This document shows positions 45,318-63,202 of a stretch of 64,000 bases of DNA, piece after piece. This DNA comes from an uncultured Bacteroidales bacterium (GTDB taxonomy: Bacteria; Bacteroidota; Bacteroidia; Bacteroidales; WCHB1-69): positions 143,178 through 207,177 of the forward strand of contig ONAB01000001.1 of NCBI GenBank assembly GCA_900315705.1, written 5' to 3'. The first letter of the stretch is position 1; every line of letters begins with the position of its first letter. The translations under genes were made by a program, and so were the position numbers. The notes below the pieces were generated by a model. That model had not been told where the DNA came from and made no database searches. It saw only the letters and a list, made by a program, of their open reading frames with translations.

Positions 45318-47786
45318 ATGATTATAGACGATATTCGCCAGATTCTGAATCCTGTTGAAAGTTTCGTGAGTGCCCCGAAGGCCATTGTCACGGAACTCAG
45401 TTTCGACAGCCGGCAGATACGGAAGCCGAAGGAGACACTCTTCTTTGCTTTCAAGACTGACCGCAACGACGGGCACCGCTACATTCCCGAGTTGCTGTCG
45501 AAGGGGGTGCGCAACTTTGTCGTGACCGCGATGACCGACGCCTTGAAAAAGAGCGTCGATGGGGTGGGGGAGTGCAATGTGCTTTGTGTTAATGATGCCC
45601 TTGTCGCGCTGCAGGCCGTCGCCACAGCCCATCGTCTGCAGTTCCAAGTGCCCACTATCGGCATCACCGGCAGCAACGGCAAGACCATCGTCAAGGAGTG
45701 GCTGACCAATATGCTGGCCGAGGACAGGCACGTCACCTGCAGCCCCGACAGCTACAATTCCCAGATCGGCGTGCCAATGTCGGTCTGGCAACTCAATGAG
45801 CGCACGGACATTGCCGTCTTTGAGGCGGGCATCTCCCGTCCTGACGAAATGCAGCGCCTGGCCGAGGTGATTCGCCCCACCCACGGCATCTTGACCAACA
45901 TTGGGATGGCCCATTCGCGCTTTTTCCTGAACAACCGGCAGAAGACCATCGAGAAGCTGAAACTCTTCCAAACGGCTGATGTGTTGGTGTATCACGATGA
46001 TAACGATGAGGTGAACGCCATACTGGCCCTCCCCGAGTACGCCCATTTGCGCAAGGCCTCCTGGGGCTCTGCGCAGGCCCGCTATCCCATTCTTCGCCGG
46101 CAGGCGGAACGCAACAGCACGCTCGTCACCATAGGTGCCGATACTTATCATATTCCCTTCCTTGACGCCGCTTCTCTGGAAAACGCCACCCATTGCATCG
46201 TGATGATGCTGGAGTTGGGCATCGCACCTGCCCAAATCGACCATCGTTTGCAAAAGCTCTCGCGCGTAAGTATGCGTACCGAAATCCTGGAGGGAATCCA
46301 GCACTCCGTGCTCATCAACGACACCTACAGTTTGGATATCAACTCTCTGCGCGCCGCCCTGGACTTTATGGACACGCAGTCCCAACTGCCCCGGAAAACC
46401 CTCATCCTCTCGGATTTCGAGCAGGTGACTGAGCTGTCTGACGATGAATACAACAGTATCAACGCCTTGCTTCACGAGCATCATATTGAAACACTTATCG
46501 CTGTGGGCCACGACATTTGCAAACATATCCACTGCTTTGACTGTGCCACGGTGCTCTCTTATCCTGACACCTCCACGCTGCTTTTGCAATTGCCGGATAT
46601 GGACTTCTCCTACCAATCCATTTTGCTTAAAGGTGCCCGAAATTTCAGATTTGAGGAGATTGTTTCCCAGTTGCAGCACAAAACCCATCTCACTATCCTG
46701 AATGTGAGTCTGCCTGCGCTGGTGCATAATCTGGAATATCATCGTACTTTCCTGAAACCCGAGACCAAAATGGTGGCGATGGTGAAGGCCCATTCCTATG
46801 GATTAGGAGATGTTGAACTAGTTAATGAATTGGTTTATAGAAATATAGATTATTTGGCGGTGGCCTATACCGATGAAGGTGTGCGTCTTCGCAAGCGCCA
46901 CGTCCAGACCCCCATTATCGTGTTGGGTGCCGAGGCGCACAGTTTCGACGTGATGGTGGAACACAATCTGGAGCCGGAAATTTTTAATTTCTACTATCTT
47001 TCTGAATTAGAGAATGTTCTGAAAAAACACCCGCAAATTCAACAGTTTAATATCCATATCAAATTAGATACTGGAATGCATCGGTTGGGTTTTGATGAAG
47101 CGGATTTAACTCGATTGGTTGAGGTTGTAAAATCCAATCCGCAATTGCGAATTGCTTCGATCTTCTCTCATCTGGCCGCTGCGGAAGATGCTGCTGAGGA
47201 TAAGTTCACGCTGCAGCAAATCCATCTGTTCAAAAGGATGACAGACAAGATACTTGAAGCGTTTGACTATCCTATATTGCGTCATATCCTTAATAGTGCG
47301 GGCATTGTGCGTTTCCCGCAGTATCAGTTCGATATGGTACGTTTGGGCATTGGCCTGTATGGATTTTCCGGCATTCCGGAAGTGCAGGGCCATTTACAGA
47401 ATGTGGCTACGTTGAAGACGGTCATCACGCAGGTGAAGCGTATTCCAGCCGGCGAGACTATTGGCTATAACCGCAGCTATCGTCTTACTCGCGACACGCA
47501 GGTGGCTATTATTCCCATCGGATACGCTGACGGCTACCCGCGTGAGTTGGCCAACGGCAAGGGCACGGTCCTCATTCAAGGCCAGAAAGTGCCGGTCATT
47601 GGCAAAATCTGTATGGATATGTGTATGCTGGATGTCACTGGCCTGGCGATTCACGAGGGCGACGAGGTTATCGTGTATGGCGAAGGCAACACCGCCGCCG
47701 ATATGGCCGATGCGGCTGGGCTTATCAGCTACGAGCTGCTTACCCGCCTGTCGCAGCGCGTGCCCCGCGTCTATGTCAAGGAGTAG
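45318..47786 (+). CDS. murF/alr: bifunctional UDP-N-acetylmuramoyl-tripeptide--D-alanyl-D-alanine ligase / alanine racemase
   Basis: The ATG at 45318 lies 1 nt after the aroK stop. The N-terminal Mur ligase carries GITGSNGKTIVKEW. The C-terminal half carries the PLP site VKAHSYGLG and the alanine racemase tail (MDMCMLDV..YELLTRLSQRVPRVY). This fusion is known in Bacteroidota. Confidence 0.9.
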   Translation: MIIDDIRQILNPVESFVSAPKAIVTELSFDSRQIRKPKETLFFAFKTDRNDGHRYIPELLSKGVRNFVVTAMTDALKKSVDGVGECNVLCVNDALVALQAVATAHRLQFQVPTIGITGSNGKTIVKEWLTNMLAEDRHVTCSPDSYNSQIGVPMSVWQLNERTDIAVFEAGISRPDEMQRLAEVIRPTHGILTNIGMAHSRFFLNNRQKTIEKLKLFQTADVLVYHDDNDEVNAILALPEYAHLRKASWGSAQARYPILRRQAERNSTLVTIGADTYHIPFLDAASLENATHCIVMMLELGIAPAQIDHRLQKLSRVSMRTEILEGIQHSVLINDTYSLDINSLRAALDFMDTQSQLPRKTLILSDFEQVTELSDDEYNSINALLHEHHIETLIAVGHDICKHIHCFDCATVLSYPDTSTLLLQLPDMDFSYQSILLKGARNFRFEEIVSQLQHKTHLTILNVSLPALVHNLEYHRTFLKPETKMVAMVKAHSYGLGDVELVNELVYRNIDYLAVAYTDEGVRLRKRHVQTPIIVLGAEAHSFDVMVEHNLEPEIFNFYYLSELENVLKKHPQIQQFNIHIKLDTGMHRLGFDEADLTRLVEVVKSNPQLRIASIFSHLAAAEDAAEDKFTLQQIHLFKRMTDKILEAFDYPILRHILNSAGIVRFPQYQFDMVRLGIGLYGFSGIPEVQGHLQNVATLKTVITQVKRIPAGETIGYNRSYRLTRDTQVAIIPIGYADGYPRELANGKGTVLIQGQKVPVIGKICMDMCMLDVTGLAIHEGDEVIVYGEGNTAADMADAAGLISYELLTRLSQRVPRVYVKE

Positions 47787-51180: not shown

Positions 51181-51471
51181 ATGAAGATTCACGCAGGCAA
51201 GAAAATAAAGGAACACTTTGTGGCATCAGGTCTGAGCGTAAGCGAGTTCGCGCGCAGGCTGAACTGCCACCGGCAAAACGTTTACGACATCTTCCGGCGG
51301 GAGGTCATTGACGTGGGGCTGCTGCAGCGCATCTCGCGTGTGCTGGAGCACGACTTCGTGTCGGAAATCTACTCCCCAAAACAGACCTCCAAAGTCACCC
51401 TTAAATTTGCCGTCACCGTGGAAATTGAGAACGGCGAACATAAAGTGACAGATGTGAAACCGCTTCCGTGA
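51181..51471 (+). CDS. small XRE-like helix-turn-helix protein
   Basis: KIKEHFVASGLSVSEFARRLNCHRQNVYDIFRRE is a classic HTH_3-like pattern. It is GC-rich like the host genes. 96 aa from the ATG at 51181. Confidence 0.65.
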   Translation: MKIHAGKKIKEHFVASGLSVSEFARRLNCHRQNVYDIFRREVIDVGLLQRISRVLEHDFVSEIYSPKQTSKVTLKFAVTVEIENGEHKVTDVKPLP

Positions 51472-51527: not shown

Positions 51528-51535
51528 TAATTTTG
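51528..51535 (+). promoter_or_regulatory. -7 promoter box, candidate promoter of the AT-rich operon
   Basis: TAATTTTG lies 63 nt upstream of the ATG at 51598. Confidence 0.4.
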
Positions 51536-51597
51536 CAGGTTGAAAAAATTGAACAGAATTGGCGAATATTATTTATTAACAAACAATAGTTATTATT

Positions 51598-52701
51598 ATG
51601 AATAACAACAACTTTTTAAAAATTTTCTCAATCATCGCTTTCGTGGCGTTTATGTTGGTGAGTTGCTGGGCAACAGTGGAATCCTTGCACATGAGCCTGG
51701 TATGGCCTAAACCGTTTTTCTGGGTGGTGGCAATAGGCCTATTCGTTATTTCTTCATTGGGCACCAAACTCATTGTGGATAGTTTCAACCAGCGGATTAG
51801 AGTTGACAATAGAGGGTGGCATTTAGTCGGTGGAATAGTTCTCTTGTTGATTTTTTGGGTTATGTTTAGTTTGCCGACTAACACGCATACATTTTTCTAC
51901 AATGCCAAAATTAGAACAGTTGTTCAGGGAGATATAAAAAGAACGGAATATTATTTGCAGCAATTATCCAATAATTCTAAAGTAGAGGACGCGATTAAAG
52001 CAGCGCAAACCAATTACGAGGAAAAAGTGTGGGATGCTTTTAGAGCGTTTAAAGAAGAAATAGAGAACTCAATTAATACAGGATATGGGCCTGTTGCAAA
52101 GGAACGATTGGCCGATTTGAATGCTGTTTTAGGTGGTGAGCCTCTGAAACTTTTGTCGGGGAATTTTTCTTCGGCTATTAAAAGGCAGCAGCTTATAGCA
52201 CAATATCAATCTATGGTAAACGAGAAAGTTGAGCAAAAGAAGAAAGAGATAGCTCGTTCAATGACACCGCAAGATGTTGTTACTTTTAAGACAGATGCTG
52301 ATAAAGCTCTAAAAAAATTAAAAAAAGCGGATGAAGTGATCGCTGATTACAAATCTAAAAACAAAATGATTCCATCAAAAATCTTAAGGGAGCAAATAGA
52401 ACCAATTATCAACAATGGGTATAAAGTGATTTCTGCAAATAGAGACTATGTGGATTTCTTGAAAGATGCTAAAGGTCAATATGTTGATAGGGATGTGTAC
52501 ACAGAGAAAAGAGCAGCTAATGGTGAAGTTATAGAACCGGAAACAAAGACATTGCGCATGTTTAATGTTTTATCTGTTTGGCAAGATTTCTTTAAGGGTA
52601 AATACAAAGGTATGGGCTTTTTCTACTGGATTTTGATTGCTGTTTTGGTTGACCTCGCCGGATTCATATTCTTTGATATTGCGTTCAGAAGAACAGAGTA
52701 G
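51598..52701 (+). CDS. island gene B: 4-TM membrane protein with ~245-aa helical/coiled-coil loop, no recognised family
   Basis: Hydrophobic segments lie at about aa 8-24, 38-55, 75-92 and 340-360. The K/E-rich helical region between TM3 and TM4 includes VEQKKKEIARS and KALKKLKKADEVIADYK. Confidence 0.7.
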   Translation: MNNNNFLKIFSIIAFVAFMLVSCWATVESLHMSLVWPKPFFWVVAIGLFVISSLGTKLIVDSFNQRIRVDNRGWHLVGGIVLLLIFWVMFSLPTNTHTFFYNAKIRTVVQGDIKRTEYYLQQLSNNSKVEDAIKAAQTNYEEKVWDAFRAFKEEIENSINTGYGPVAKERLADLNAVLGGEPLKLLSGNFSSAIKRQQLIAQYQSMVNEKVEQKKKEIARSMTPQDVVTFKTDADKALKKLKKADEVIADYKSKNKMIPSKILREQIEPIINNGYKVISANRDYVDFLKDAKGQYVDRDVYTEKRAANGEVIEPETKTLRMFNVLSVWQDFFKGKYKGMGFFYWILIAVLVDLAGFIFFDIAFRRTE

Positions 52702-52740
52702 TATTTGTATAGTGCAATTTATAAAAAATAAGTATAAAAA

Positions 52741-53721
52741 ATGGAAGATAATAATTTAGAAAACAACGGTTTCGATTTGGAATTTAATGAGAATGATTCC
52801 AAAAATAATTCAACAGGTGGACAAAACGACGACAACCGCAATCCAGATAATGGATTCGACCAAGGGAAGTCAAACAACCTTGGCGAAGAACGTCCCATCT
52901 CTGGGCTAACGTTCGAAGAAGAACAGGATCCCAATAAAATTCAGGTGGTCATTTCTGATCCTACTCCGATCATTGTCTTGTTCGGGGCAAGATCATCGGG
53001 AAAAACAATGACTTTGGTGCGTTTAACCCGTTGGCTGAAAGCACACGATTACCAAGTGGAACCTGACCGTAATTTCAGACCAAGCAATTCTGAATTTTAT
53101 AAAAAAATGTGTGACTCATTTGACGAAAATGTCAATAGCGACTATGCGGCAAGTCGTAACCAAATCCTTAATTTCATGTTGGTCAAAGTGATGAATAAGT
53201 ATGGTGAGCCGATATGTCAAATATTAGAAGCACCAGGCGAGCATTATTTTGATGATAAATATCCTAACAGGGAATTCCCATTATATATTAATAAGATATG
53301 TACAACGGACAATCCTAAAACATGGATGTTTATTGTGGAACGTAACTGGAAAGATGCAAAAGACAGACTCAATTACGCAAATAAGATTATAAAAATGCAG
53401 TCATTAATCGAGCCGTCAGACAGGGTGATTTTTACTTGTCACAAATCAGACTTGCATCCTGCACTTATCAATGCTGGTCAGCCTAATGTTCCTCAATTTT
53501 TCAAAGATATTAAGAATCAGTATCCTGGGATTTTCTCAAAATATGAGAACAAAAATCCGATATCAAGATTGTGGAGGAAGTATAATTTCGACTTTGTTGT
53601 GTTTTCCGCAGGTACTTTCAATGACACTGCAGATGGAGGACAATCGTATAATCCGAGCAAAGAAAGAAACCCTGTCGCGTTATGGAAAGCTATCATGAAA
53701 ACTGTGAAAGGTGGTTGGTAA
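52741..53721 (+). CDS. island gene C: P-loop NTPase with small-GTPase-like motif order and a disordered N/D/G-rich N-terminus
   Basis: G1 LFGARSSGKT. G3-like ILEAPGEH. G4-like TCHKSDL. G5-like VFSAGT. No TM helix or signal peptide. The first ~70 aa are low-complexity. Confidence 0.65.
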   Translation: MEDNNLENNGFDLEFNENDSKNNSTGGQNDDNRNPDNGFDQGKSNNLGEERPISGLTFEEEQDPNKIQVVISDPTPIIVLFGARSSGKTMTLVRLTRWLKAHDYQVEPDRNFRPSNSEFYKKMCDSFDENVNSDYAASRNQILNFMLVKVMNKYGEPICQILEAPGEHYFDDKYPNREFPLYINKICTTDNPKTWMFIVERNWKDAKDRLNYANKIIKMQSLIEPSDRVIFTCHKSDLHPALINAGQPNVPQFFKDIKNQYPGIFSKYENKNPISRLWRKYNFDFVVFSAGTFNDTADGGQSYNPSKERNPVALWKAIMKTVKGGW

Positions 53722-53743
53722 TACAGAATAGGAGGAAAGAACG

Positions 53744-55501
53744 ATGGAATTTGTCATAAGAATATATGGCGCTCCGTATGGTTTTGAATTGTATGAAGGC
53801 TCAGAACAGGAGTTGAATTATTTCCAGGTTTTTGACAACGGGAGTTTAGAACCCGTAAAAATGACTGTTCACCGTTTGAACAACAATCAAATTTCATACA
53901 ATTACTTGCGATACGGCTATGTCACGAGCGGAGGACGAACTGGCTCTTTCTTTGGCATGTCGGTTGTGTTTAACAAGTCCTATTGCTCGGAGTTTACAAG
54001 AATGTATCAACTTTTCGAGGCAGTTTATGGTACAATAGTTAAAAATGCGATTCTATTTGAAGAGCTGACGACTGAACAATGGCAAGCGAGGTACAAGATA
54101 GGTAAGTTTTCAGAAGCAGAGGATGAAATTAGGCGAATTAAGGGTGTTTTAAGTCAAAATATACAAGGGACTCTCGCAAGCAGTATTCGGTCAATAGACT
54201 TTTCATCCTCCGTTTCACGTGACAAGGAACTGCGCCTTTCTGCCAATGTGGGTAATGAATTGGTTTCCAATGCTGTAAACAAGTATAGCATTGTGACTAT
54301 TTCACCAGCATACGGTTCTAATGGTGGAGATGAAGTTGAACGAATTCCTGTTGAGGAATTGGTGAAATTTCCAATCGAAAAAAATGCCATTCTTATCAAA
54401 GCTACAGAATGGTCAAATAAGGTGAGTGCTTTCCTGATCAATTTACGTGCTCATCAAGATAACAAAAGAGATGTAAGTCCTCTTTTCCCCCAGTACAAGT
54501 CCATGATGAGCGAACTTGACGGATTTGCTGTGAAAATGGAGACGTTTTTGTCTAAAATTCAAAGATGTCATAACATTGAACCGTCTCATTCGTATTTCAG
54601 GGAGGAAGTACAAAAAGAGGTAGCTACGGCAAAAGATAACGTAAACACCCTCTTAGGATCGTTGCGATTATATAAAGATTCATTTGAAAAAGGTGATGGT
54701 CCAAAAGGCGAAGGTGGTGGAACAGATAAACCTGATGGACCTTCTGCTTTTGAAAAATTTATTCACAAAAATCAAAAGCTGCTAATATCGTTAGGTGTTT
54801 TTTTGTGTTTGATTGTAGGAGGAGTTACAATCTACAACATTTCGCGGAATGATAATCCGGAAGGTTCCAAAGGCCCTATTATAGATACGACAGTAGAAAC
54901 TCCAGAACAGGAGCCCCCCGTAACTCTGAATAAAGATTCTCTTAAGCAAAAAGCATTAGAAAAGTTTAATGCTGGGGAATATGGTGAAGCGTATAAGGAT
55001 TATGTTGAAGCAAATGAAATAACGCTGGCGACAGATTGCAAAAATGAATGCATGAAGGAAGCAAAGAAAAAAAATACTAAAGACGCTGCTATAAAGTATT
55101 TTAAGGATGAAATGGCGAAAGGCGGTTATACTATGACTGATCAAGACCAGAATGTGATAAAAAATGCTTTCCCTGCCAACGCCGTAGATAAAACCTCCGC
55201 CTCCCAGAATCCTAATGAACAAAAAGTTAGTTTTACAGTAAAACAAAAGGGAATAGGAGATATTACCAAATCAAAAGAAGTCGTTTTAGGAAAGAAAGAA
55301 ACAAATTTGGTTACCATAGAATATAATCCAAAAGATGCAAATGTGACATGTAAGGTTAATGGTGTTTTCAAAACAAAAGATCCTGGTCAGGAACGCTACT
55401 CTTTCAGAGTGGGTGAAGCCGTCAAATACGAAATTGAATGTTTTGTCGATGGGCGTTCTGTGTTCAAGAAAACTTATACACGTCAAGATGCTATACAATA
55501 A
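53744..55501 (+). CDS. island gene D: single-TM membrane protein with N-terminal domain shared with gene H, central TM, TPR-like plus beta-rich C-terminal part
   Basis: The N-terminus is MEFVIRIYGAPYGFELYEG... The TM is LLISLGVFLCLIVGGVTIYNI at about aa 345-365. The C-terminal region carries ALEKFNAGEYGEAYKDYVEA. Confidence 0.7.
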   Translation: MEFVIRIYGAPYGFELYEGSEQELNYFQVFDNGSLEPVKMTVHRLNNNQISYNYLRYGYVTSGGRTGSFFGMSVVFNKSYCSEFTRMYQLFEAVYGTIVKNAILFEELTTEQWQARYKIGKFSEAEDEIRRIKGVLSQNIQGTLASSIRSIDFSSSVSRDKELRLSANVGNELVSNAVNKYSIVTISPAYGSNGGDEVERIPVEELVKFPIEKNAILIKATEWSNKVSAFLINLRAHQDNKRDVSPLFPQYKSMMSELDGFAVKMETFLSKIQRCHNIEPSHSYFREEVQKEVATAKDNVNTLLGSLRLYKDSFEKGDGPKGEGGGTDKPDGPSAFEKFIHKNQKLLISLGVFLCLIVGGVTIYNISRNDNPEGSKGPIIDTTVETPEQEPPVTLNKDSLKQKALEKFNAGEYGEAYKDYVEANEITLATDCKNECMKEAKKKNTKDAAIKYFKDEMAKGGYTMTDQDQNVIKNAFPANAVDKTSASQNPNEQKVSFTVKQKGIGDITKSKEVVLGKKETNLVTIEYNPKDANVTCKVNGVFKTKDPGQERYSFRVGEAVKYEIECFVDGRSVFKKTYTRQDAIQ

Positions 55502-55553
55502 TTATGAATATTAACAGATTTTTATTAATTATGAATATTAACAGATTTTTATT
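55500..55553 (+). repeat. perfect 27-bp tandem duplication spanning the start codon of gene E
   Basis: aattatgaatattaacagatttttatt occurs at 55500-55526 and again at 55527-55553. This gives two in-frame ATGs (55504, 55531) and the peptide repeat MNINRFLLI/MNINRFLLC. Confidence 0.95.
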
Positions 55554-56223
55554 GTGCATAGTATTAATAGGCATGTTTTTCCCTATTTCAGCCCAAACAA
55601 CAGACACAATTCTGAGGTATGAAATATGCTTAGATACAGTTTTGGCGAAAACTAATCTCAAAATGGTTACATACAGAGATAGGAAGGTCTATAAAGCACC
55701 TGTCCATGCGGTGGATTCTGTATGGTTTAAGGAGGGGGCTCTATTTGTGAGATGCATGAATAGTCCGGATGTTATAGAGAATATTTCAAAAAAAATTGCT
55801 CAAGCTGTAACGGTCTGTGAGTTTAGCAATGTAACAACGAAACATTATCAGGTAGAGTCTTCATCACCTCAATTATCAAAATATGATGTCTCTATTGATG
55901 AGTTTTTAAATATCGAAGATTCCACAATTTTTACTTCAAAATTCAGGGCTTTAGAAAAAAGTCAGATTCATCCGCGCAGCTATAAATACTACTGCTTGAT
56001 TGCTGAAATCCATCAAATATATGTAAAAATGGAATCTTTAAGTCAATTAAATTGGACAGAAAAAAATAAGGCTGATAAAGTGATGGATGAATTATATACC
56101 CTTTTTGAAAACATCACAAACAAGTTTAAAACCGAACGAGAAGAATATTTGACACCCTCCCAAAAGACGTTTTATGAGAATAAGCTCAAACTTTTTAAGA
56201 AATTGTACTATGCGGACAATTAA
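55504..56223 (+). CDS. island gene E: secreted hypothetical protein
   Basis: The signal peptide is ..LLCIVLIGMFFPISAQ. The alternative start at 55531 removes the duplicated 9 aa. No motif was recognised. Confidence 0.65.
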   Translation: MNINRFLLIMNINRFLLCIVLIGMFFPISAQTTDTILRYEICLDTVLAKTNLKMVTYRDRKVYKAPVHAVDSVWFKEGALFVRCMNSPDVIENISKKIAQAVTVCEFSNVTTKHYQVESSSPQLSKYDVSIDEFLNIEDSTIFTSKFRALEKSQIHPRSYKYYCLIAEIHQIYVKMESLSQLNWTEKNKADKVMDELYTLFENITNKFKTEREEYLTPSQKTFYENKLKLFKKLYYADN

Positions 56224-56734
56224 ATGGTGTTTCTTTTTTCTCTTCTTTTTCTTTCTATCTTGCCATTCGAATCAGCAGGATTATTCCTGGTCATACTTCG
56301 ATTACGAAGAAACAGAAGAGGTTGAGCAAAACGAAAAGGTAGATTACATCCCCGTGCCTTACAAAGAATCCTTCGACAACACGATTGTGATTCCTGTGAA
56401 GATCAATGGCGTAGGGTTGGATATGATATTCGATACAGGAGCGTCTTCTACATGCATAACAGTGGCAGAAGCACAATATCTGTACGACAAAGGACGCCTT
56501 TCCGATGAGGATATTTTGGATCTTCAGGCTTATCAAACTGCCGATGGAAATATCAGCGTGGGCTTACGTATTATTTTAAGAGAGGTTGCCATTGGAGAAT
56601 CTATTCAGTTAAATAATGTGGAAGCACTTGTGGTAGAAGACCAACTGGCACCACTTCTTCTCGGCCAATCAGTTTTGAAGAACTTTAAAGAGGTATCGGT
56701 TGACAGAAAAAATAGAGTTGTTAAATTCTATTAA
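56210..56734 (+). CDS. island gene F: lipoprotein with retropepsin-like (clan AA) aspartic protease domain
   Basis: The ATG at 56210 gives MRTIKWCFFFLFFFFLSC (lipobox). VKINGVGLDMIFDTGASSTCITVAEAQYL is followed by ..LLLGQSVLKNF, typical of bacterial gag-type aspartyl proteases. Confidence 0.75.
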   Translation: MRTIKWCFFFLFFFFLSCHSNQQDYSWSYFDYEETEEVEQNEKVDYIPVPYKESFDNTIVIPVKINGVGLDMIFDTGASSTCITVAEAQYLYDKGRLSDEDILDLQAYQTADGNISVGLRIILREVAIGESIQLNNVEALVVEDQLAPLLLGQSVLKNFKEVSVDRKNRVVKFY

Positions 56735-56742
56735 TTAGTATT

Positions 56743-57954
56743 ATGCGTAAGATATTCCTGTTAATAATGGTCTTTGGCTCGTTATTAGGAGCTTGCCACA
56801 ATAAAGCAGAAGAGGATGCGATAGCCGCTATTCTTAATTCTGACGATGAAGAGGTGATTCTTGAAGAACAAGGTGGCAATTCCGAAACAAGTTGCCTTTC
56901 CTTGTCCCCATCTTTTGAAGGAACAAAAACGGTGACATCCGATTATCAAACACGTCTTGCTGATTTGGGTCGGGAGGTTTACCCAGAATTGATTCCAATA
57001 GAAAATGATGCTATAGGAGGTATAAAGTTATGTGCCGAAATGTCTGCGGATAGAAACGGCAATTATCGTTCCAATACACAAGGAGATAATCCGACCACTT
57101 TTTACTCGTACGAACTATTAGGACTGACCCTTCTCGATGTTTCCGATTGCGATGGTATTCCAAATATTTTGAGCAGAGTAATTGGAGGAGATGTTACAGT
57201 TGAATTGGGAACTGTTTGTGACAACCCAGATGCCTTTTGGGGAAATGGACCATCTTTCCAGGTTCCTATTACCATCACCAACAATCGTCCTGAAGGTACT
57301 GACGTGGATATTCCGCAAGGAACTATGTTGGAAGCAGAAAATGATAATGTTCAGAATATTGTTGTCGCAAAATCTGTGTCCACAAAATTATCTCCTTCTG
57401 AAACAAAGACCGTTACAGTAAAAGCAATGTGCGCATCTCGTAAACGTGGAGATCCCAAAAGGTCTAAGGTAAAGCTAACCCCATTCCTACTTAATGTACC
57501 ATCCAATGCCTACCAGGCACAAACTCAGCTGTGGGACCAAATTGAATCAAATCATCAATCAAGGAAAGAATATACCATCACATTCTACTCATGGGGCGTT
57601 GGAGATCCTAATGGACAAGGTGAACCGAGTCAAACTGGTCATGCATTCGTGGACATTCCCGGGATAGGTTTGGTAGGGTATGGTGGAACAGTGTTTGACC
57701 ATTCGCGTCTAATTCAAAATGCTACCAGATTGGCATCTGTAAGGGTGAGCCAAAGTGATTTGGATAACGCCCAAAGAAAGTATTATGAATGGTTGAATGA
57801 TACAAGGGGTTACGAATTGGCCCGTCACGACTGCACGTCATTTGTGATGGATATTGCAGATGCTGCGCACATTAAATATGGTACCCGATGGACTATTCAG
57901 TTCCCTGCAACATTTGTACGTGCTGTGAATTATTATAACAAATGGAATAATTAG
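56743..57954 (+). CDS. island gene G: lipoprotein with C-terminal LRAT/NlpC-P60-like (permuted papain-fold) motif pair
   Basis: Lipobox LLGAC. The His segment TGHAFVDIPGIGLVGY is followed about 60 aa later by YELARHDCTSFVMDIA. The latter resembles the Y-x-L-x3-NCEHFV Cys motif of LRAT/H-rev107-type enzymes. Confidence 0.5.
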   Translation: MRKIFLLIMVFGSLLGACHNKAEEDAIAAILNSDDEEVILEEQGGNSETSCLSLSPSFEGTKTVTSDYQTRLADLGREVYPELIPIENDAIGGIKLCAEMSADRNGNYRSNTQGDNPTTFYSYELLGLTLLDVSDCDGIPNILSRVIGGDVTVELGTVCDNPDAFWGNGPSFQVPITITNNRPEGTDVDIPQGTMLEAENDNVQNIVVAKSVSTKLSPSETKTVTVKAMCASRKRGDPKRSKVKLTPFLLNVPSNAYQAQTQLWDQIESNHQSRKEYTITFYSWGVGDPNGQGEPSQTGHAFVDIPGIGLVGYGGTVFDHSRLIQNATRLASVRVSQSDLDNAQRKYYEWLNDTRGYELARHDCTSFVMDIADAAHIKYGTRWTIQFPATFVRAVNYYNKWNN

Positions 57955-57956
57955 AC

Positions 57957-59069
57957 ATGAACTTTAGCTTATATGTGATTGGCACTCCTAACGGCTATGA
58001 CCAATATCCGTTAGACTCAAACAGTTCAAAATTTCAAGAAATATTGACTTCTTGCAACTCGGAATCCCAACTGTCCGTTTTGCGAGACAACCAACTTATC
58101 CAATATGTCTATGTGCGGAAAATCTCAAGTGACGACGGTTTTTGTTGGGGATTTGGCTTTGCGCTTGTTGTGACAGGGGTCTATTGCTTAAATTGCCATA
58201 CACTGAACGATTTGTTTGAAACCGCTTTTTATGATGTTCTGCTGAAAGGAAAACTATTTCGTTATCAGGGGAATAGCTTTAGTTACCAAGTGTCAAAATT
58301 CGCGGATGATATCAATGAAATCAAACGTATCAATACGTTTTTCAAGTCAAAATTGGAGTATGAATTAGGTGATTTGTTCGTTACGATTCCAGCTTCTTTT
58401 TCGATAGGAAATGGTCAGACATCCATCTCAATGAAAGAATCTGCTTCGGATATAAATTTTGCCGTTAAAAATTTTGATGTCGTTCATATCACAAATAATG
58501 AAAAAAAAAATCCAGGATCAAAACCACCTCCCCCTAAACCCAAACATTGGGTGTTTTGGCTTTTGATTACGGCGGTGCTTTTGGCGGGGACGGCGATAGC
58601 TATCTCTATGTTTTTTCATCGAAATCCAACTGGGCCAAAAATAGAAAATGCTTCTATTCAAAATCTTAAAACCATTTACGACGAGGCAATTCTCGAATTT
58701 AACGTTAAGAGTGAATTAATTGTCAATGGCAAAGATAAGGGCGTTGGGGATAAAGGTTATGTGATTGATGCGTTAAGAGCGATAAAAACAATAGAACGAT
58801 GTGAAAGAAAAGACCCGTTGTATCCCCAATTGGGTACAGACACTGTTTTCCAGAACAAACTCCAACAATATCGGAAAGAATTATTTAAAGCCAGAACAAA
58901 AATCATAAGTGAAAATGAGAAACAATTATACGACCCAGGAGATAGCTCTGGATACATTACATTAATGCGAGAACGCTTGAAATATATTGACTATGTAATA
59001 GAACAAACGAATGGGAATAGTGTCTTGGATGTCCAAATAAGACCACCGTATGAAAAGGATTCGGAATAA
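57957..59069 (+). CDS. island gene H: single-TM membrane protein, N-terminal domain paralogous to gene D
   Basis: The N-terminus is MNFSLYVIGTPNGYDQYP... A proline run (KPPPPKPK) precedes the TM WVFWLLITAVLLAGTAIAISMFF. The C-terminal part is ~150 aa. Confidence 0.7.
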   Translation: MNFSLYVIGTPNGYDQYPLDSNSSKFQEILTSCNSESQLSVLRDNQLIQYVYVRKISSDDGFCWGFGFALVVTGVYCLNCHTLNDLFETAFYDVLLKGKLFRYQGNSFSYQVSKFADDINEIKRINTFFKSKLEYELGDLFVTIPASFSIGNGQTSISMKESASDINFAVKNFDVVHITNNEKKNPGSKPPPPKPKHWVFWLLITAVLLAGTAIAISMFFHRNPTGPKIENASIQNLKTIYDEAILEFNVKSELIVNGKDKGVGDKGYVIDALRAIKTIERCERKDPLYPQLGTDTVFQNKLQQYRKELFKARTKIISENEKQLYDPGDSSGYITLMRERLKYIDYVIEQTNGNSVLDVQIRPPYEKDSE

Positions 59070-59104
59070 ACTGTCAGATTTTTTAATGAATATAAATATT
59101 AGTT

Positions 59105-60052
59105 ATGAAAAGAGTATGTTTGGTGATAGCTGTTAGCTTTTGTTTTATAGCTTCATATGCTCAATGTGTCCAAATATTGAAAGATGCACGTGAGTTCAAG
59201 AAAAACGGAGACTATGAGCGTGCTGCTGATTATTATGAAAAATTAAATACTCAGTGTCCAAGTTATGTGGACCAGAATGTGCAAAAAGAATGGGCTGCAT
59301 GCAAGAGCAAACAAAATAAAACTTTGCAAAAGAAGCCTTCAAGCAATTACGTCGCAAAACAACCACGGTCAACGGAGTGGCTTTATAATATGGACTTGTA
59401 TTTCGATGAAACAGGTAAATGTCTCAACGAAATTTGTCGTACGGAAGTGACTTACAGGGGAGATTGGTTTTTTTTAGTCCCCGATGCCAGCAAAAACTGG
59501 TTACATGTTGTGCAGTATGGAAACTCCTTGGATGTGAGTTGTGATCCTAACCTTACATCAATAGACCGTATTGATACAATTGATTTTGTTGCCAATGCCC
59601 CTCAAGGAACGCAAACCAGTATGATCATTGTCCACCAAGAAGCAAAAGGAACTTCTTCTGGCGCTACTAAACGAAAAAGGTCTCCCGCACAAAGTAATTC
59701 TTCAGACTCAATGGATGACTATCAGTCCATCACGGTTAAGGTCACTTTTGAAAAAGGGAAGGCGAAACCAACTTTTGAGAATGTTGGCAAATTACTTGGA
59801 TTATTGGAAGACAACAAAAATCTCGGTTTGCAGATTGAAATACCATGGTGCAGCGAGCGAAAAATAGAGGTGGGGATTTTTAATAAATATCCTATGTCAT
59901 TAATGAAAAAACGAATCAAAAACATAACGAATTATTTCGTTAATTCAGGAATTGCTAAAGAAAGAATTTCATGGTCCATGAATGAAAGCACTATAGATTG
60001 TGATTGTGCTTATGCTTATGCTAAAGTAACTGAACTAACGAAACAAAGATGA
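59105..60052 (+). CDS. island gene I: secreted protein with TPR-like motif, BACON-like beta domain (tentative) and degenerate OmpA-like C-terminus
   Basis: The signal peptide ends SYAQC. A TPR-like segment is KKNGDYERAADYYEKL. WFFLVPDASKNWLHVVQYGNSLDVSCDPN..RIDTIDFVA resembles BACON. The C-terminal LMKKRIKNITNYFVNSGIAKERISWSMNES resembles the OmpA_C helix. Confidence 0.55.
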   Translation: MKRVCLVIAVSFCFIASYAQCVQILKDAREFKKNGDYERAADYYEKLNTQCPSYVDQNVQKEWAACKSKQNKTLQKKPSSNYVAKQPRSTEWLYNMDLYFDETGKCLNEICRTEVTYRGDWFFLVPDASKNWLHVVQYGNSLDVSCDPNLTSIDRIDTIDFVANAPQGTQTSMIIVHQEAKGTSSGATKRKRSPAQSNSSDSMDDYQSITVKVTFEKGKAKPTFENVGKLLGLLEDNKNLGLQIEIPWCSERKIEVGIFNKYPMSLMKKRIKNITNYFVNSGIAKERISWSMNESTIDCDCAYAYAKVTELTKQR

Positions 60053-60101
60053 ATGTAAAATCTAGACAAATAGTATATCGCCCAAGAAAAATCAATCAAG
60101 T

Positions 60102-60518
60102 ATGAGAAAAAGAATCATTTTGGCAATCATTGCCTGCATTTGTTTTGTCGCATCATACGCGCAAAGCGGAAGTTCAGATGTCGTGTCAAAAACCAAAATT
60201 TCGTTTGCAAAGAACAAAGATGTTCCAAAGATTAAGGATGAGGATGGTAACATTGACAAGACGGTTGCGATTTTGAAAAAGAATCCGGGACTTAAACTTA
60301 TTGTGGAAGCATACTCTTGTGGCCGTGGCTCGGAACAACATAATCGGGATCTCGCCCAAAGAAGAGCAAACAATGTTCGCAATATCTTCATTGAGAAAGG
60401 GTTGAACCCAGATCAAATCGAAACCGCTTCTTATACGGAGAATGATCCTCAGAATAGCCAAGAGGACAAGATTCCCAAAGAGTGTAATTGTGCTGTCTTT
60501 AAAATCGTAAAAAGATAA
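60102..60518 (+). CDS. island gene J: small OmpA-family peptidoglycan-binding protein
   Basis: The signal peptide ends SYAQS. The OmpA_C pattern is ILKKNPGLKLIVEAYSCGRGSEQHNRDLAQRRANNVRNIFIEKGLNPDQIETASYTEN. Confidence 0.75.
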   Translation: MRKRIILAIIACICFVASYAQSGSSDVVSKTKISFAKNKDVPKIKDEDGNIDKTVAILKKNPGLKLIVEAYSCGRGSEQHNRDLAQRRANNVRNIFIEKGLNPDQIETASYTENDPQNSQEDKIPKECNCAVFKIVKR

Positions 60519-60551
60519 GTACTAAAAAATGTGCTTGCTAATCGTAGTCCT

Positions 60552-61832
60552 ATGCGTTTTAAGAAGAATCTTTTTCTGGTTGTAGTATCCGTCATTTCCT
60601 GCATCCTTCCCATACTGCTTTTATTCAAGCCTTCCATACTCTCCGCCCAACCCACTACCCAGACCTCTTCTCAAGTCACCCTCGAAGGCACCATCACCAT
60701 GTACAAGGTCACGCGATATGGAGATAGCCTGCAGGAAATCGACCGTTATCGCAGGACTACCAAGGAGGGTGAGTTTGTTGCTTTTATCCTGAAAACGGAT
60801 GAGAAATTGGATATGGCCCAATATCTTGAAGTAGATGAGTTGGCACCACTCTTGGAATATGACGAAACCATGCAGTCCGAGTTTTTGATGGTGCAGGATT
60901 TCGAATCAAACGAACCTTTCTCGGGAAAGAAATTCGCTGCCCAATATGCCAACAAACGCGTCCGCGTCACTGGCACTCTCTTTTTCCCCATGGCTGGCTG
61001 GCATTACGTGACACCCGTGGCGATGGAGTATAGTAGGGTGGAGGTAGTGGAGCCTAGAATGCCCAAGTATAAACAGAAATTCCCCCAAAAGAACATCCAG
61101 GTTAACGATTCCGTTGAACTGACCTTCTCCTCTATGGAGGAAGCGGAATGGAAGTTGTTGCATCGGGTTCCGTATGAGGCGTTCTATGACGCTTTTGAGG
61201 AGGTGCTTCAGTCTGACCCCTCGTCGATGGATTATCCGTTCGATTCGCTCACCTTTTTTGATCCGTCCCAAAGCGCCCCTCAGCTGACATCGGTCGTTTG
61301 GTCGGAGGATCGCAACATGCGCTGTATTGGCTTGACGTATTACACCCCGTCATTACTTGTTCAGTACAGGGCTGATGGCGAAGTGCGGCTGGCGGAAGAT
61401 AAGCTGGACGATAACAGCTACTGGTGCCAATGTCCAGACACCGTTTATACTCTTACAACCGGCCATTCCACCCTGTATCTGGTTCGGGGATACGACGGTT
61501 CTGTGGGCGGCGAGCGCAATTACTGCTTGCAGGCTTACGAATTGGACGAAACGGGTTTCCATCCGGCATCCGTTTTTGAAGAGAGCGACACCCCGAACCC
61601 AAACAGCACCAAACAAAACATCTACATGACAATTTGTGACAATGAGGAAATGATCAATACGGTTTTTAATGACGGCATCAGCTCCTTAGTCTATTTTGAC
61701 GGAAAAGAGAGCGCTGTCTATGTCCGGGTTTTCAAGGAAAAAGATCCGGACGCGGACGGCTGCACGTTCGAGATGACTAACCGCTACCGGAAATACGTAT
61801 GGGATGGGATGAGGTTTGTGCTGAGGGAGTAG
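60552..61832 (+). CDS. gene K: secreted/anchored protein whose N-terminal ~150 aa are paralogous to 62645..63202
   Basis: The ATG at 60552 (MRFKKNLFLVVVSVISCILPILLLF) is preferred over the GTG at 60531. The shared block is ..RVRVTGTLFFPMAGWHYVTPVAMEYSRVEVVE. The extra ~260-aa C-terminal region has no recognised motif. Confidence 0.65.
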   Translation: MRFKKNLFLVVVSVISCILPILLLFKPSILSAQPTTQTSSQVTLEGTITMYKVTRYGDSLQEIDRYRRTTKEGEFVAFILKTDEKLDMAQYLEVDELAPLLEYDETMQSEFLMVQDFESNEPFSGKKFAAQYANKRVRVTGTLFFPMAGWHYVTPVAMEYSRVEVVEPRMPKYKQKFPQKNIQVNDSVELTFSSMEEAEWKLLHRVPYEAFYDAFEEVLQSDPSSMDYPFDSLTFFDPSQSAPQLTSVVWSEDRNMRCIGLTYYTPSLLVQYRADGEVRLAEDKLDDNSYWCQCPDTVYTLTTGHSTLYLVRGYDGSVGGERNYCLQAYELDETGFHPASVFEESDTPNPNSTKQNIYMTICDNEEMINTVFNDGISSLVYFDGKESAVYVRVFKEKDPDADGCTFEMTNRYRKYVWDGMRFVLRE

Positions 61833-61839
61833 AGACGTT

Positions 61840-62489
61840 TCAGGAAACCACCCTGATGCCGTTGGCTTTCAGCTGCGCAAAAGCCCGTTCCAGGGTCTCC
61901 GCCTGCTCGAATTTCACATTGGCGTTCCCGTCGCGGTTCTCGATGTAGAAGGGATGCAGGTTGATCTGCGCGATGCCCGGGAAGTAGCCGAAGGCCTTCT
62001 TGTAGGAGTAGGTCGCATCGTATTTCTCGGCCTTGACGAATTGGTTGTCGTAATCGAACGTCACAGGCTGTTCTTTGTCCACCATGCCGAGTTGTATCAA
62101 TCCGTTGAGCAGTAGGCCGTTCAGCCTGTCGTTGATGTTGAACTGGTAGGTCTTCCCGCTCTCTACCGCCTGGAATTCGGCGTTCTCCACGGACAGTTTC
62201 TTCAGGTCGCGGGCAATGGTGTCCGCGCTGCAGAAGCAGTAGTCCGGATTTTCCTTGAAAGCCTCCTGGCGGAAAAAGTGCACATCTTCCAGAACCTCAC
62301 CGCCGCTGAGATAGACGGAGGTCAAGTTCTCCACGATATTGGAATATTTGTATTTTGAATTCAACCCTTTGACACCCAGCGTGTTGTCAACAAGATGGGC
62401 GAACCCTGAAGCCCGGAATTGGTCGATTGCGAAAAAAATTCCGCCGAAACTGTTGATTCTGTCGTTTTTAATTTGTATTTTGCTGCCAT
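61840..62489 (-). pseudogene. DDE transposase remnant (IS1380/IS4-like N-terminal part, tentative), 5' frameshifted and 3' truncated
   Basis: The open frame reads ..KIQIKNDRINSFGGIFFAIDQFRASGFAHLVDNTLGVKGLNSKYKYSNIV...GYFPGIAQINLHPFYIENRDGNANV.. and ends after about 225 codons. The only ATG (62489) is in the +1 frame relative to it. A -7 box (forward strand caaaaata at 62525..62532, reverse complement TATTTTTG) lies upstream. Confidence 0.6.
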
Positions 62490-62644: not shown

Positions 62645-63202
62645 ATGCCCAATATAACAACACAATTAAAGAGAATGCTCCTTTGGAGACGTATGAAAGG
62701 CTTAGTGTCCACACTAATATCATTTTTGACATTAGGCCTACTTTTATTCGCCAGCAACATCGCAACCCTTTATGCCCAAACATCAACACACCAAGTTGTC
62801 ATACCAGATACGCAACCCACTACCCTCTCCGGCACCCTCCACCTCTACTATGTCTCCGAATACGGTGACAAAATATCCGAGGTGGACTCCTACCGACTGG
62901 CCGCGGGCGACGGCGAGTACCTCGCCTTCGTCCTCAAGACCGTCACCCCCGTCGATGTGTCGCTCTTCCTCGACCGCGACGAGCTGCAGGCACTCGTGGA
63001 CATCGAAGGCTCTGTGATGCAGTCGGAGTTCATGCTGGTACCCAACCACGACCTGTTCGAGACCTTCTCGTGGAGAGACTACGCGGAGCGTTTCGCCCAC
63101 AAGCGCGTGCGCGTCTCCGGCACCCTCTTCTTCCCCATGGCTGGCTGGCACTACATCACCCCCGTGGCGGTGGAGTTCGGCAAGGTGGAGGTGGAGGAGT
63201 AG
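62645..63202 (+). CDS. secreted/anchored protein, short GC-rich paralog of the gene K N-terminal domain
   Basis: The hydrophobic N-terminus ends ATLYAQ. The shared block is ..RVRVSGTLFFPMAGWHYITPVAVEFGKVEVEE. 185 aa. Confidence 0.65.
   Translation: MPNITTQLKRMLLWRRMKGLVSTLISFLTLGLLLFASNIATLYAQTSTHQVVIPDTQPTTLSGTLHLYYVSEYGDKISEVDSYRLAAGDGEYLAFVLKTVTPVDVSLFLDRDELQALVDIEGSVMQSEFMLVPNHDLFETFSWRDYAERFAHKRVRVSGTLFFPMAGWHYITPVAVEFGKVEVEE

Follow-up and report, generated by a model that had tools for sequence, protein, structure and literature searches.

What do a GTPase, several membrane proteins and a lipoprotein protease do together in one AT-rich operon of an uncultured Bacteroidales bacterium? 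The question arises from a stretch of 64,000 nucleotides, here called the window (contig ONAB01000001.1 of assembly GCA_900315705.1, positions 143,178 to 207,177), in which an initial annotation had seen a horizontally acquired, envelope-associated, GTPase-centred unit of 10 to 11 genes that possibly serves biological conflict. This general description is consistent with all findings reported here and is strengthened by fusions of the GTPase in related lineages. The 10 to 11 genes are not the conserved unit, however, and the reading of one of them, G, as a hydrolase did not hold. What travels together from genome to genome is a smaller module of the genes B, C, D and H, joined by F in about 75% of the loci (58 of 81 sources, being 80 loci and the window) and by E in 27 of the 80 other loci, or 28 with the window, as detected by an iterative hidden Markov model search. 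The module is an undescribed candidate system with an inferred function. Its components are, in their order in the window:

51598 to 52701, plus strand: B, core inner-membrane protein, from hydropathy and an alignment of 62 sequences
52741 to 53721, plus strand: C, core cytoplasmic GTPase of an isolated TRAFAC-like family
53744 to 55501, plus strand: D, core protein of the D type, modelled with a predicted local distance difference test score (pLDDT) of 79.5
55504 to 56223, plus strand: E, frequent core component with a signal-peptide-like N-terminus
56210 to 56734, plus strand: F, lipoprotein and retropepsin-like aspartic protease (clan AA) with the catalytic motif DTGAS
57957 to 59069, plus strand: H, core protein and H-type paralogue of D, with a cytoplasmic module (residues 1-181), a transmembrane (TM) helix (202-220) and an ectodomain of about 150 residues

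Distribution and mobility of the module

The distribution was followed with C as the marker. Among 185,579 species in GTDB, a relative of C was found in 108, nearly all of them Bacteroidota. The carriers are Bacteroidales, including Parabacteroides distasonis, Porphyromonas uenonis, Xylanibacter and Hallella, and also Saprospiraceae. Loci from other species were fetched (80 in all, numbered with an L below); three contigs of the same species bring the number of sources to 83, and the 80 loci with the window make up the 81 sources that were clustered. Many contigs are cut, and gene counts per locus are lower bounds.

When the 80 loci were compared by tblastn and all-against-all clustering, they proved to be collinear (B - C - D - [E] - F - H) between unrelated flanks. 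B adjoins C in 81 of the 83 sources, and proteins of the D/H family are present in 74 of the 81 clustered ones. The universal part, B-C-D-H, is usually extended by E and F, and the core thus amounts to four to six genes. Co-occurrence outside this genome, on which the initial annotation had made its proposal depend, was thus seen across the 80 loci.

The genes around the core differ from locus to locus. A tyrosine integrase was the commonest neighbour (7 of 124 sampled flank proteins), and the rest were mostly housekeeping proteins that varied by locus. No consistent adjacency to a tRNA gene was found in ten loci. The module is conserved, mobile and restricted to Bacteroidota.

A mobile module might serve the element that carries it, such as a small integrative island or a degraded prophage, by superinfection exclusion, by lysis or as an addiction cassette. 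This would agree with the integrase that lies directly 5' of B in five loci (L076, L078, L082, L061 and L084) and with a C homologue in one 'viral' contig of the 2.9 million in IMG/VR. Yet no C homologue was found in 50,697 phage genomes or in 72,556 plasmids, PHROGs gave no match for the core, and in most loci neither an integrase nor a phage gene lies close by, so that we regard a function for the mobile element as very improbable. The single viral contig and the absence of any phage or plasmid record also rule against a phage or plasmid origin of the module, which had been considered separately.

Composition and limits of the acquired block

The initial annotation had described an AT-rich, one-strand run of genes from 51598 to 61832. 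The map of open reading frames agrees: B to K all lie on the plus strand with gaps of -14 to +49 nt, when the likely starts are used (E at 55504 or 55531, F at 56210, K at 60552). The GC content per kb was 0.35-0.42 at 51-61 kb, compared to about 0.50-0.60 across most of the window. At third codon positions (GC3), values of 0.33-0.41 were obtained for B to J and of 0.55-0.80 for four flanking housekeeping genes. The two genes at the edges, A with a GC3 of 0.68 and K with 0.61, are both host-like, and J (GC3 0.40) is the final gene of the AT-rich block. The compositionally foreign block comprises B to J only, at about 51.5-60.5 kb. B to J (51598-60518) form one tight plus-strand operon and represent a horizontally acquired island.

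Windowed GC and GC3 therefore confirm the AT-richness claimed at the outset; only the figure of 72% GC for the flanking DNA has to be corrected, as it came from an unrepresentative line and the true flank GC is about 52-59%. The difference in composition is not limited to the window, since the core was AT-richer than its flanks in 55 of 58 loci from other genomes, by a mean of 8.9 GC points. Flanking direct repeats that might act as attachment sites were not found in the window.

The cytoplasmic GTPase C

C is a P-loop GTPase of the TRAFAC class, as seen from its fold together with the motifs G1, G3, G4 and G5. In the AlphaFold model (pLDDT 82) the N-terminal 55 residues or so are disordered and the GTPase domain is well predicted. 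The motifs read GARSSGKT (G1), LEAPGEHYF (G3/Walker B), CHKSD (G4) and FSAG (G5), and a conserved KGGW lies at the C-terminus. In alignments of 12 and of 41 family members GxxxSGKT, LEAPGEHYF, CHKxD and FSAG were invariant or nearly so, and the acidic Walker B residue, Glu163, was invariant. A Foldseek search with the model found 109 PDB chains at E <=0.001; the best 50 of these 109 were all GTPases or GTPase-containing complexes. The matches included eEF1A/EF-Tu, Rab, Nog1, GPN-loop GTPases and Gtr1/Rag at E values of 1e-6 to 1e-4, and also Toc33, none of them prominent. The alignments and the predicted fold thus substantiate the G1/G3/G4/G5-like motifs noticed earlier in this protein.

Searches by sequence placed C in no known family. 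Against Pfam it gave generic sub-threshold P-loop matches only, members of its family had weak matches to G-alpha, SR-beta and Gtr1/RagA, and a profile search of the PDB returned P-loop noise only. The family contains 497 clusters at 50% identity among 1.84 billion protein representatives, 274 of them at E <=1e-30. A word-indexed search gave 899 clusters at 90% identity, which are named 'hypothetical protein' or carry automatic names such as 'GTPase SAR1 family protein'. The C family is small, isolated and sharply bounded.

Four loci (L005, L017, L032 and L034) encode a second, shorter C-like GTPase of 254-282 residues, placed in tandem with C or 3' of H. In this they are reminiscent of the DO-GTPase systems with their paired 'double' GTPases.

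The paralogous membrane proteins D and H

D and H have an N-terminal module of about 185 residues in common. The hhalign probability for this relationship was 99.6%, in agreement with the shared domain proposed in the initial annotation. The module occurs twice per locus in 60 loci, once in an upstream protein of the D type and once in a downstream protein of the H type; the two types form two clades that are reciprocal best matches in 60 of 60 cases. Because each locus has one of each and the matches are reciprocal throughout, the duplication is old and both copies have been retained. A single TM helix was found in 55 of the 60 D-type proteins and in 55 of the 60 H-type proteins.

The two sides of the membrane have evolved differently. 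While the cytoplasmic modules make up one family, the ectodomains fall into sequence groups without mutual relation, 31 in D and 13 in H, and the beta-sandwich at the periplasmic end of the window D has no homologue among the other loci. Judged from the sequences, such variability would be the pattern expected of a diversifying recognition surface.

The model of D shows a cytoplasmic alpha+beta domain (residues 1-141), a small alpha/beta domain (148-199), long helices (203-315), the TM helix (346-364), a periplasmic helical region (397-473) and the beta-sandwich (496-580). In the first domain the elements follow in the order strand-(strand)-helix-strand-strand-strand-helix-helix, which is longin-like, with pLDDT values mostly of 63-95. 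D-type proteins conserve G9-x-P11-x-G13 in the loop between strands 1 and 2, and Arg65 in the loop between strands 4 and 5 (56 of 58 sequences). Both features are limited to the D type, and the position of Arg65 holds no Arg in the H type. H-type proteins conserve a QYPxD motif and Arg43 instead.

When the D model was compared to the PDB with Foldseek, the top match was TagF from two species (6iz8 and 9t0n; E 0.019-0.043, probability up to 0.93), a weak match with a TM-score of 0.41 on the TagF length. It was followed by FNIP2 in the FLCN-FNIP2-Rag-Ragulator complex (6ulg_N, E 0.066) and by the GATOR1 entries 7t3b_B and 9v0j_A at E of about 0.8-0.9. All of these are two-domain or longin-type regulators. 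A fold search of BFVD with D found nothing. The beta-sandwich, which is single and not repeated, resembled FN3-like modules (probability 0.99, E 0.077). Pfam detected a C9orf72-like domain in two of the 58 D-type domains (E 0.013 and 0.07), and the family consensus reached E 0.16.

Homology of D or H to C9orf72 or FLCN was considered and rejected, as all hhalign probabilities stayed below 2%. The human C9orf72 and FLCN queries were exact matches to 6lt0_C and 6ulg_L, and the C9orf72 family profile was shallow, its final homologue search giving vertebrate orthologues only. The parallel of the D module to longin domains and TagF, which is drawn from the model, is suggestive and is taken as a lead and not as a finding.

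The membrane protein B and the periplasmic components E and F

B crosses the membrane four times: three TM helices lie at the N-terminus, and a helical, coiled-coil-like loop of about 230 residues separates them from the fourth. Hydropathy thus bears out the four TM segments and long helical loop originally described. From the charge distribution, the loop is probably periplasmic. Several polar residues at the membrane are invariant in the family: TM1 ends in SCWAT.ES, PTNTHTFFY follows TM3, and TM4 contains an Asp. The family consensus matched DUF4407 with E 4.9e-4, which is under the cut-off, and the B profile found coiled-coil noise only in the PDB. B may act as an effector in the membrane or as a scaffold.

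The secreted protein E is helical and has about 215-240 residues, with a conserved C-terminal LSxxQxxYF...YNxF. L062 encodes it as a fusion with D, at the periplasmic end of the latter.

F belongs to the retropepsins of clan AA, as a model above threshold and the catalytic motif show. It matched PF13975 with E 1.2e-15 and 58.3 bits (cut-off 28.2); TIGR02281 was matched with E 8.6e-14, below its own cut-off. In 56 sequences Asp87 and Gly89 were invariant and the lipobox Cys nearly so. The PF13975 match and the invariant Asp of the DTG motif uphold the retropepsin-like lipoprotein suggested initially. Since F is missing in about a quarter of the loci, proteolysis is not essential to the core.

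Two loci without F, L004 and L064, carry a lipoprotein family resembling S8 subtilases. In L064 the gene follows H; in L004 it stands between the second and the third gene of the D/H family. In these loci the lipoprotein may be a non-homologous replacement of the periplasmic protease. In L055 (15431-17155) the retropepsin F and an S8-like lipoprotein occur together.

Fusions of the GTPase

N-terminal extensions of 140-330 residues were observed in about 12 of the best 150 of the 497 C-family representatives. Among the extensions tested, TIR_2 was found in 9 of 9 (E 1e-24 to 3e-8; proteins P0321, P0355, P0406, P0429, P0433, P0434, P0435, P0442 and P0465) and a calcineurin-like metallophosphoesterase in one. 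A TIR-GTPase gene stands alone between housekeeping genes in L089 (818-2188) and is a single-gene defence candidate by itself. The metallophosphoesterase-GTPase of L010 (8642-10501) shares 53% identity with C across its GTPase part, and its gene is flanked by hsdS and hsdR in a type I restriction-modification operon; by eye, we take another gene of this operon to be DUF1016/YhcG-like. The acidic Walker B residue is Asp in the TIR and metallophosphoesterase fusions, and Glu is specific to the operon clade.

Among prokaryotic immune proteins, an NTPase switch joined to a TIR or calcineurin-type domain is a typical architecture. By analogy, the fusions point to an immune or conflict role of the GTPase. 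For a conflict or defence system in general we consider the case about evenly balanced, with a slight lean in its favour.

Comparison with described systems

The core could not be assigned to any named system. Scans of the ten proteins with Pfam, NCBIfam, PADLOC and PHROGs returned nothing for B, D, E, G and H, and curated libraries recognised F and J only. PADLOC-DB 2.0 gave noise only for the core (E >=0.0035), and a match of J to ZorB was due to the OmpA domain. Literature searches on retropepsin, GTPase and Bacteroidetes, on TagF, DENN and longin domains, on DUF4407 and on the discovery of Bacteroidota defence turned up no account of the gene set. For the core, the profile searches therefore agree with the initial annotation, which had recognised no named system in the gene set.

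The closest described kind are the DO-GTPase/GAP1 systems, GTPase-centric conflict systems that were predicted computationally by Kaur, Burroughs, Iyer and Aravind (eLife 2020, PMC7159879). According to these authors, a Walker B Glu is a hallmark of DO-GTPases, and the systems include membrane-proximal ones in which GAP1 proteins have C-terminal TM helices and extracellular domains, with fast-evolving FNIII domains and with calcineurin and TIR effectors. Similar features are found here: mobile operons around a TRAFAC GTPase with a Walker B Glu (E163 in C), membrane-proximal partners in which C-terminal TM helices occur together with extracytoplasmic domains that evolve fast, and TIR and calcineurin-like phosphoesterase effectors attached to the GTPase lineage.

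The module could then be a divergent DO-GTPase/GAP1 system in which C is a DO-GTPase and D and H are GAP1 proteins that have diverged past recognition. Besides the invariant E163 and the similar architecture and effector repertoire, three sub-threshold matches among the relatives of C would fit this reading. One of the 41 members of the C clade matched DO-GTPase2 at E 0.0076, and two TIR-fused relatives matched DO-GTPase1/2 at E 1.4e-5 and 1.3e-4 (24.9 and 22.2 bits, with a cut-off of 27). The likeness of the D beta-sandwich to FN3-like modules would fit as well. Nevertheless, the tests for membership fail. The window C gave no DO-GTPase match at E up to 0.1 and 40 of the 41 clade members gave none, and D and H gave no match to a GAP1-type Pfam family at E up to 0.1. 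Among the 58 N-terminal domains of the D type, searched at E up to 1 against Pfam (which we take to contain GAP1 models), 22 families were matched and none was of the GAP1 type. No GASH, GAAD or FNIII-repeat component is recognisable by Pfam. The constant partners of the GTPase differ, being here B, the D/H pair, E and a lipoprotein retropepsin. Here, TIR and phosphoesterase are joined to the GTPase itself in stand-alone genes, and there to GAP1 or GAAD adaptors; the Walker B Glu is confined to the operon clade, the fusions having Asp. Finally, the words 'aspartyl' and 'retropepsin' are absent from Kaur et al. (2020, PMC7159879), where this protease component is apparently not described. A divergent DO-GTPase/GAP1 system is rather unlikely.

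A second comparison concerns GTPases that are served by paralogous partners, as in the longin GTPase-activating protein (GAP) heterodimers FLCN-FNIP, NPRL2-NPRL3 of GATOR1 and C9orf72-SMCR8, and as in MglA-MglB. Like these, the module has a dedicated GTPase and two paralogous partners. A study of 2025 described a GP motif in the loop between strands 1 and 2 of the FLCN-FNIP, GATOR1 and C9orf72-SMCR8 heterodimers and an arginine finger in one subunit. The longin-like element order of the D N-terminal domain, the G-x-P of the D type and its near-invariant Arg may correspond to this arrangement. However, D and H have no significant sequence similarity to the longin proteins, and here the partners are bitopic with periplasmic domains. 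The arginine finger of FLCN is presumably Arg164, which lies in 'KDSLARGFQRW' between two predicted strands. C itself stands outside the MglA, Arf and Rag families by every curated threshold. No Ras, Roc or MglA model matched C or appeared among the 25 families commonest for the C clade, and no Roadblock or LC7 model matched D or H.

The resemblance to MglA-MglB allows a reading free of conflict, in which the module is a Bacteroidota-specific analogue of the MglA/MglB switches and serves envelope homeostasis, linking periplasmic cues by way of regulated proteolysis to the organisation of the membrane or surface, e.g. capsule, vesicles or polarity. A GTPase paired with longin/roadblock-like partners would suit such a role, and periplasmic retropepsins process bitopic polarity proteins, e.g. 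PerP acting on PodJ in Caulobacter. A gene located 5' in several loci is, by eye, presumably an UpxY/NusG-type antiterminator as in Bacteroides capsule operons. Homeostatic signalling is nonetheless distinctly unlikely in view of the sporadic distribution (the 108 GTDB species), the AT-rich, integrase-linked loci at unrelated insertion sites, the hypervariable ectodomains and the immune-type fusions of the GTPase.

TagF, the top structural match of the D cytoplasmic module, shares with it an alpha+beta domain followed by an alpha/beta domain. It is a post-translational regulator of type VI secretion that acts at the inner membrane and binds TagZ, a protein with a single TM helix and a variable periplasmic domain. 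The TagF-TagZ arrangement resembles the fused architecture of D and H. In contrast to TagF, D and H matched no TagF model of Pfam or NCBIfam and have no conserved type VI secretion neighbours, and the paper on TagF-TagZ mentions no GTPase. F, for its part, is like the bacterial retropepsins (PF13975/PF13650, TIGR02281-like) in family and DTG motif, and unlike them is a lipoprotein within a conserved GTPase operon.

A proposed mechanism

The gene set, its conservation and mobility, its foreign composition, the GTPase fold, the intact motifs and protease site, the paralogy and topology of D and H, the hypervariable ectodomains and the fusions are supported directly. From these we infer a D-H heterodimer, a role of this pair as GAP or guanine nucleotide exchange factor (GEF), the direction of signalling, a function of B as effector and an anti-phage role.

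In the mechanism that we propose, the ancient paralogues D and H would probably form a heterodimer in the inner membrane. On the periplasmic side, their hypervariable ectodomains would detect an event at the envelope, most plausibly the attack of a phage or of another invader. The secreted E and the aspartic protease F may assist the detection, perhaps by a regulated cleavage. The TagF/longin-like modules in the cytoplasm would then alter the nucleotide state of C, and Arg65 of the D type might act as an arginine finger. C would in turn control B, the remaining universally conserved component, whose polar intramembrane residues hint at a channel-like or enzymatic activity there. Sister lineages may use this GTPase domain to drive effectors that are fused to it, TIR or calcineurin-like phosphoesterase, in one polypeptide.

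We tentatively favour a membrane-embedded GTPase switch that is used in biological conflict, seated in the envelope and directed against invaders, while holding it somewhat short of an even chance. The complete version is doubtful and, taken as a whole, unlikely: an undescribed envelope-spanning immune machine in which D and H form a heterodimeric GAP or GEF with an arginine finger, similar to FLCN-FNIP, GATOR1 or C9orf72-SMCR8, and in which periplasmic recognition and proteolysis lead to a response through B.

Several results weigh against the proposed anti-invader switch. About one locus in four lacks F, and L005, the closest relative, is one of these. No sign of presence/absence polymorphism emerged within the species, as 24 of 24 same-species contigs with the identical flanking gene carry the island at the same site. 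The likeness to longin domains and TagF is weak (Foldseek E >=0.019), the hhalign probabilities of D-type against C9orf72 and FLCN and of H-type against C9orf72 were 0.2-1.3%, and PDB profile searches with the D-type and H-type profiles found nothing. The defence-island signal in the flanks is weak, with about 5 of 124 proteins matching PADLOC, mostly candidate single-gene entries, and PADLOC gave no match for the core. The operon form contains no canonical toxic effector domain. Lastly, the recurrent downstream genes for GH25, S8, OmpA and BACON proteins would fit envelope remodelling or antagonism equally well.

B, C, D/H and E are four protein families without a model in Pfam, NCBIfam or PADLOC. 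If the anti-invader switch is correct, the module would serve Bacteroidota of the gut and the environment as a defence or surveillance system specific to the phylum. Bacteroidota host the abundant crAss-like phages, and little of their immune repertoire has been charted. Sensing would take place in the periplasm and be relayed by a GTPase, in contrast to the cytoplasmic nucleic-acid sensing that is typical of known systems. The possible longin/TagF-like pair would extend to bacteria a logic of GTPase regulation that has been discussed until now for eukaryotes and Asgard archaea, and could shed light on the function of the TagF fold. Candidate defence systems are numerous, which lowers the surprise; the periplasm-facing design, the protease and the possible regulator pair place this one above average.

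Accessory genes downstream of the core

The remaining genes of the run and the remnant at its end are:

56743 to 57954, plus strand: G, accessory lipoprotein without a match in Pfam, NCBIfam, PADLOC or PDB
59105 to 60052, plus strand: I, accessory secreted protein with weak BACON-like and C-terminal OmpA-like similarity
60102 to 60518, plus strand: J, small secreted peptidoglycan-binding protein of the OmpA family (PF00691, E 1.3e-14, 54.8 bits, cut-off 27.2)
60552 to 61832, plus strand: K, secreted or anchored protein with a host-like GC3 and a weak DUF4431 match
61840 to 62364, minus strand: truncated IS1380-family transposase, the N-terminal 174 residues (N-terminal third)

G, I, J and K were each found in one or two other loci, or by tblastn in 4-5 of the 83 sources, three of these being of the same species. 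They are lineage-specific accessories. Outside this species the G family occurs in L005 and L008 only, and I in L005 only. For G, an LRAT/NlpC-P60-like pair of His and Cys motifs had been proposed initially, and the sequence searches of Pfam, NCBIfam and the PDB lent it no support. I matched BACON with E 4.8e-4 (under the cut-off) and the C-terminal region of the PorE model with E 8e-7. The OmpA-like nature assigned to J was confirmed by PF00691.

As G, I, J and K are present in few loci, the envelope hydrolases and peptidoglycan anchors that had been counted as part of the system are lineage-specific accessories. The same-strand genes 3' of H differ between loci; the 81 that were scanned included four for BACON proteins, three for GH25 muramidases, two for S8 peptidases and two for OmpA proteins.

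This variable set could indicate a machine in the envelope that serves antagonism or a controlled lysis. Its trans-envelope conduit or activation platform would be built from B, D, E and H and gated by C, and would export, position or activate the variable secreted enzymes against competitors or against the cell's own wall. Such a machine would agree with the location of all components but C in the membrane or the periplasm, with the long and probably periplasmic helical loop of B, with the downstream genes themselves and with TagF, the top match of D, being a regulator of a secretion machine. Against this, the hydrolase genes are present in few loci and most downstream genes are locus-variable or housekeeping, a conserved outer-membrane channel or secretin-like component was not found, and cytoplasmic, immune-type TIR or phosphoesterase fusions do not fit secretion. 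We judge an envelope machine unlikely, if still to be taken seriously.

A few genes 3' of the module, a trio of caspase-like, CHAT/TPR and sigma-factor-like genes was noticed in L029 (10079-14565), L063 and L078. CHAT was identified by Pfam in one member and the others were assigned by eye; the trio may be an independent conflict system that shares the island.

Flanks and further features of the window

Three features at the 5' end and within the operon complete the description:

51181 to 51471, plus strand: A, small Xre/Cro-type helix-turn-helix (HTH) protein (Pfam HTH_3 E 9.7e-5; PHROG HTH E 7e-7)
51528 to 51535, plus strand: candidate operon promoter, TAATTTTG, which fits TAnnTTTG and lies 62 nt 5' of the start codon of B
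55499 to 55552, plus strand: perfect 27-nt tandem duplication, from a repeat search, covering the stop codon of D and the start codon of E

An A-like gene lies immediately 5' of B in L005, L053, L062 and L069. A is a possible regulator of the module, and its membership is uncertain. We take TAnnTTTG to be the -7 promoter box of Bacteroidetes, and TAATTTTG is presumably the promoter of the operon. The unit of the duplication is TAATTATGAATATTAACAGATTTTTAT, present in two copies. Because the duplication spans the start of E, this protein has two possible in-frame ATG starts, and its N-terminus reads MNINRFLLI-MNINRFLL.

On the 3' side, K is probably outside the acquired block. Its N-terminal part of about 130 residues is paralogous to the 185-residue open reading frame 62645-63202 (75% identity over 142 nt). 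Both are weak DUF4431 matches with host-like GC3, and the IS1380 remnant lies between them. Two HTH genes had been described as flanking the block; this applies to 51181-51471, whereas 62645-63202 is the K paralogue and has no HTH match. In tblastn searches the open reading frame 61840-62364 was 42-45% identical, over 97% of its length, to the transposases of IS942, IS612 and ISBf12 from Bacteroides plasmids, consistent with the dead transposase reported at the end of the block.

An Rfam scan of the window found a tRNA-Asp and no other structured RNA. Beside this tRNA gene (19749-19826) the region 19001-23000 shows a second dip in GC (0.43-0.50) and may be another acquired segment. At 45318-47786 the window encodes an 822-residue protein in which a Mur-ligase middle domain is fused to a complete alanine racemase.

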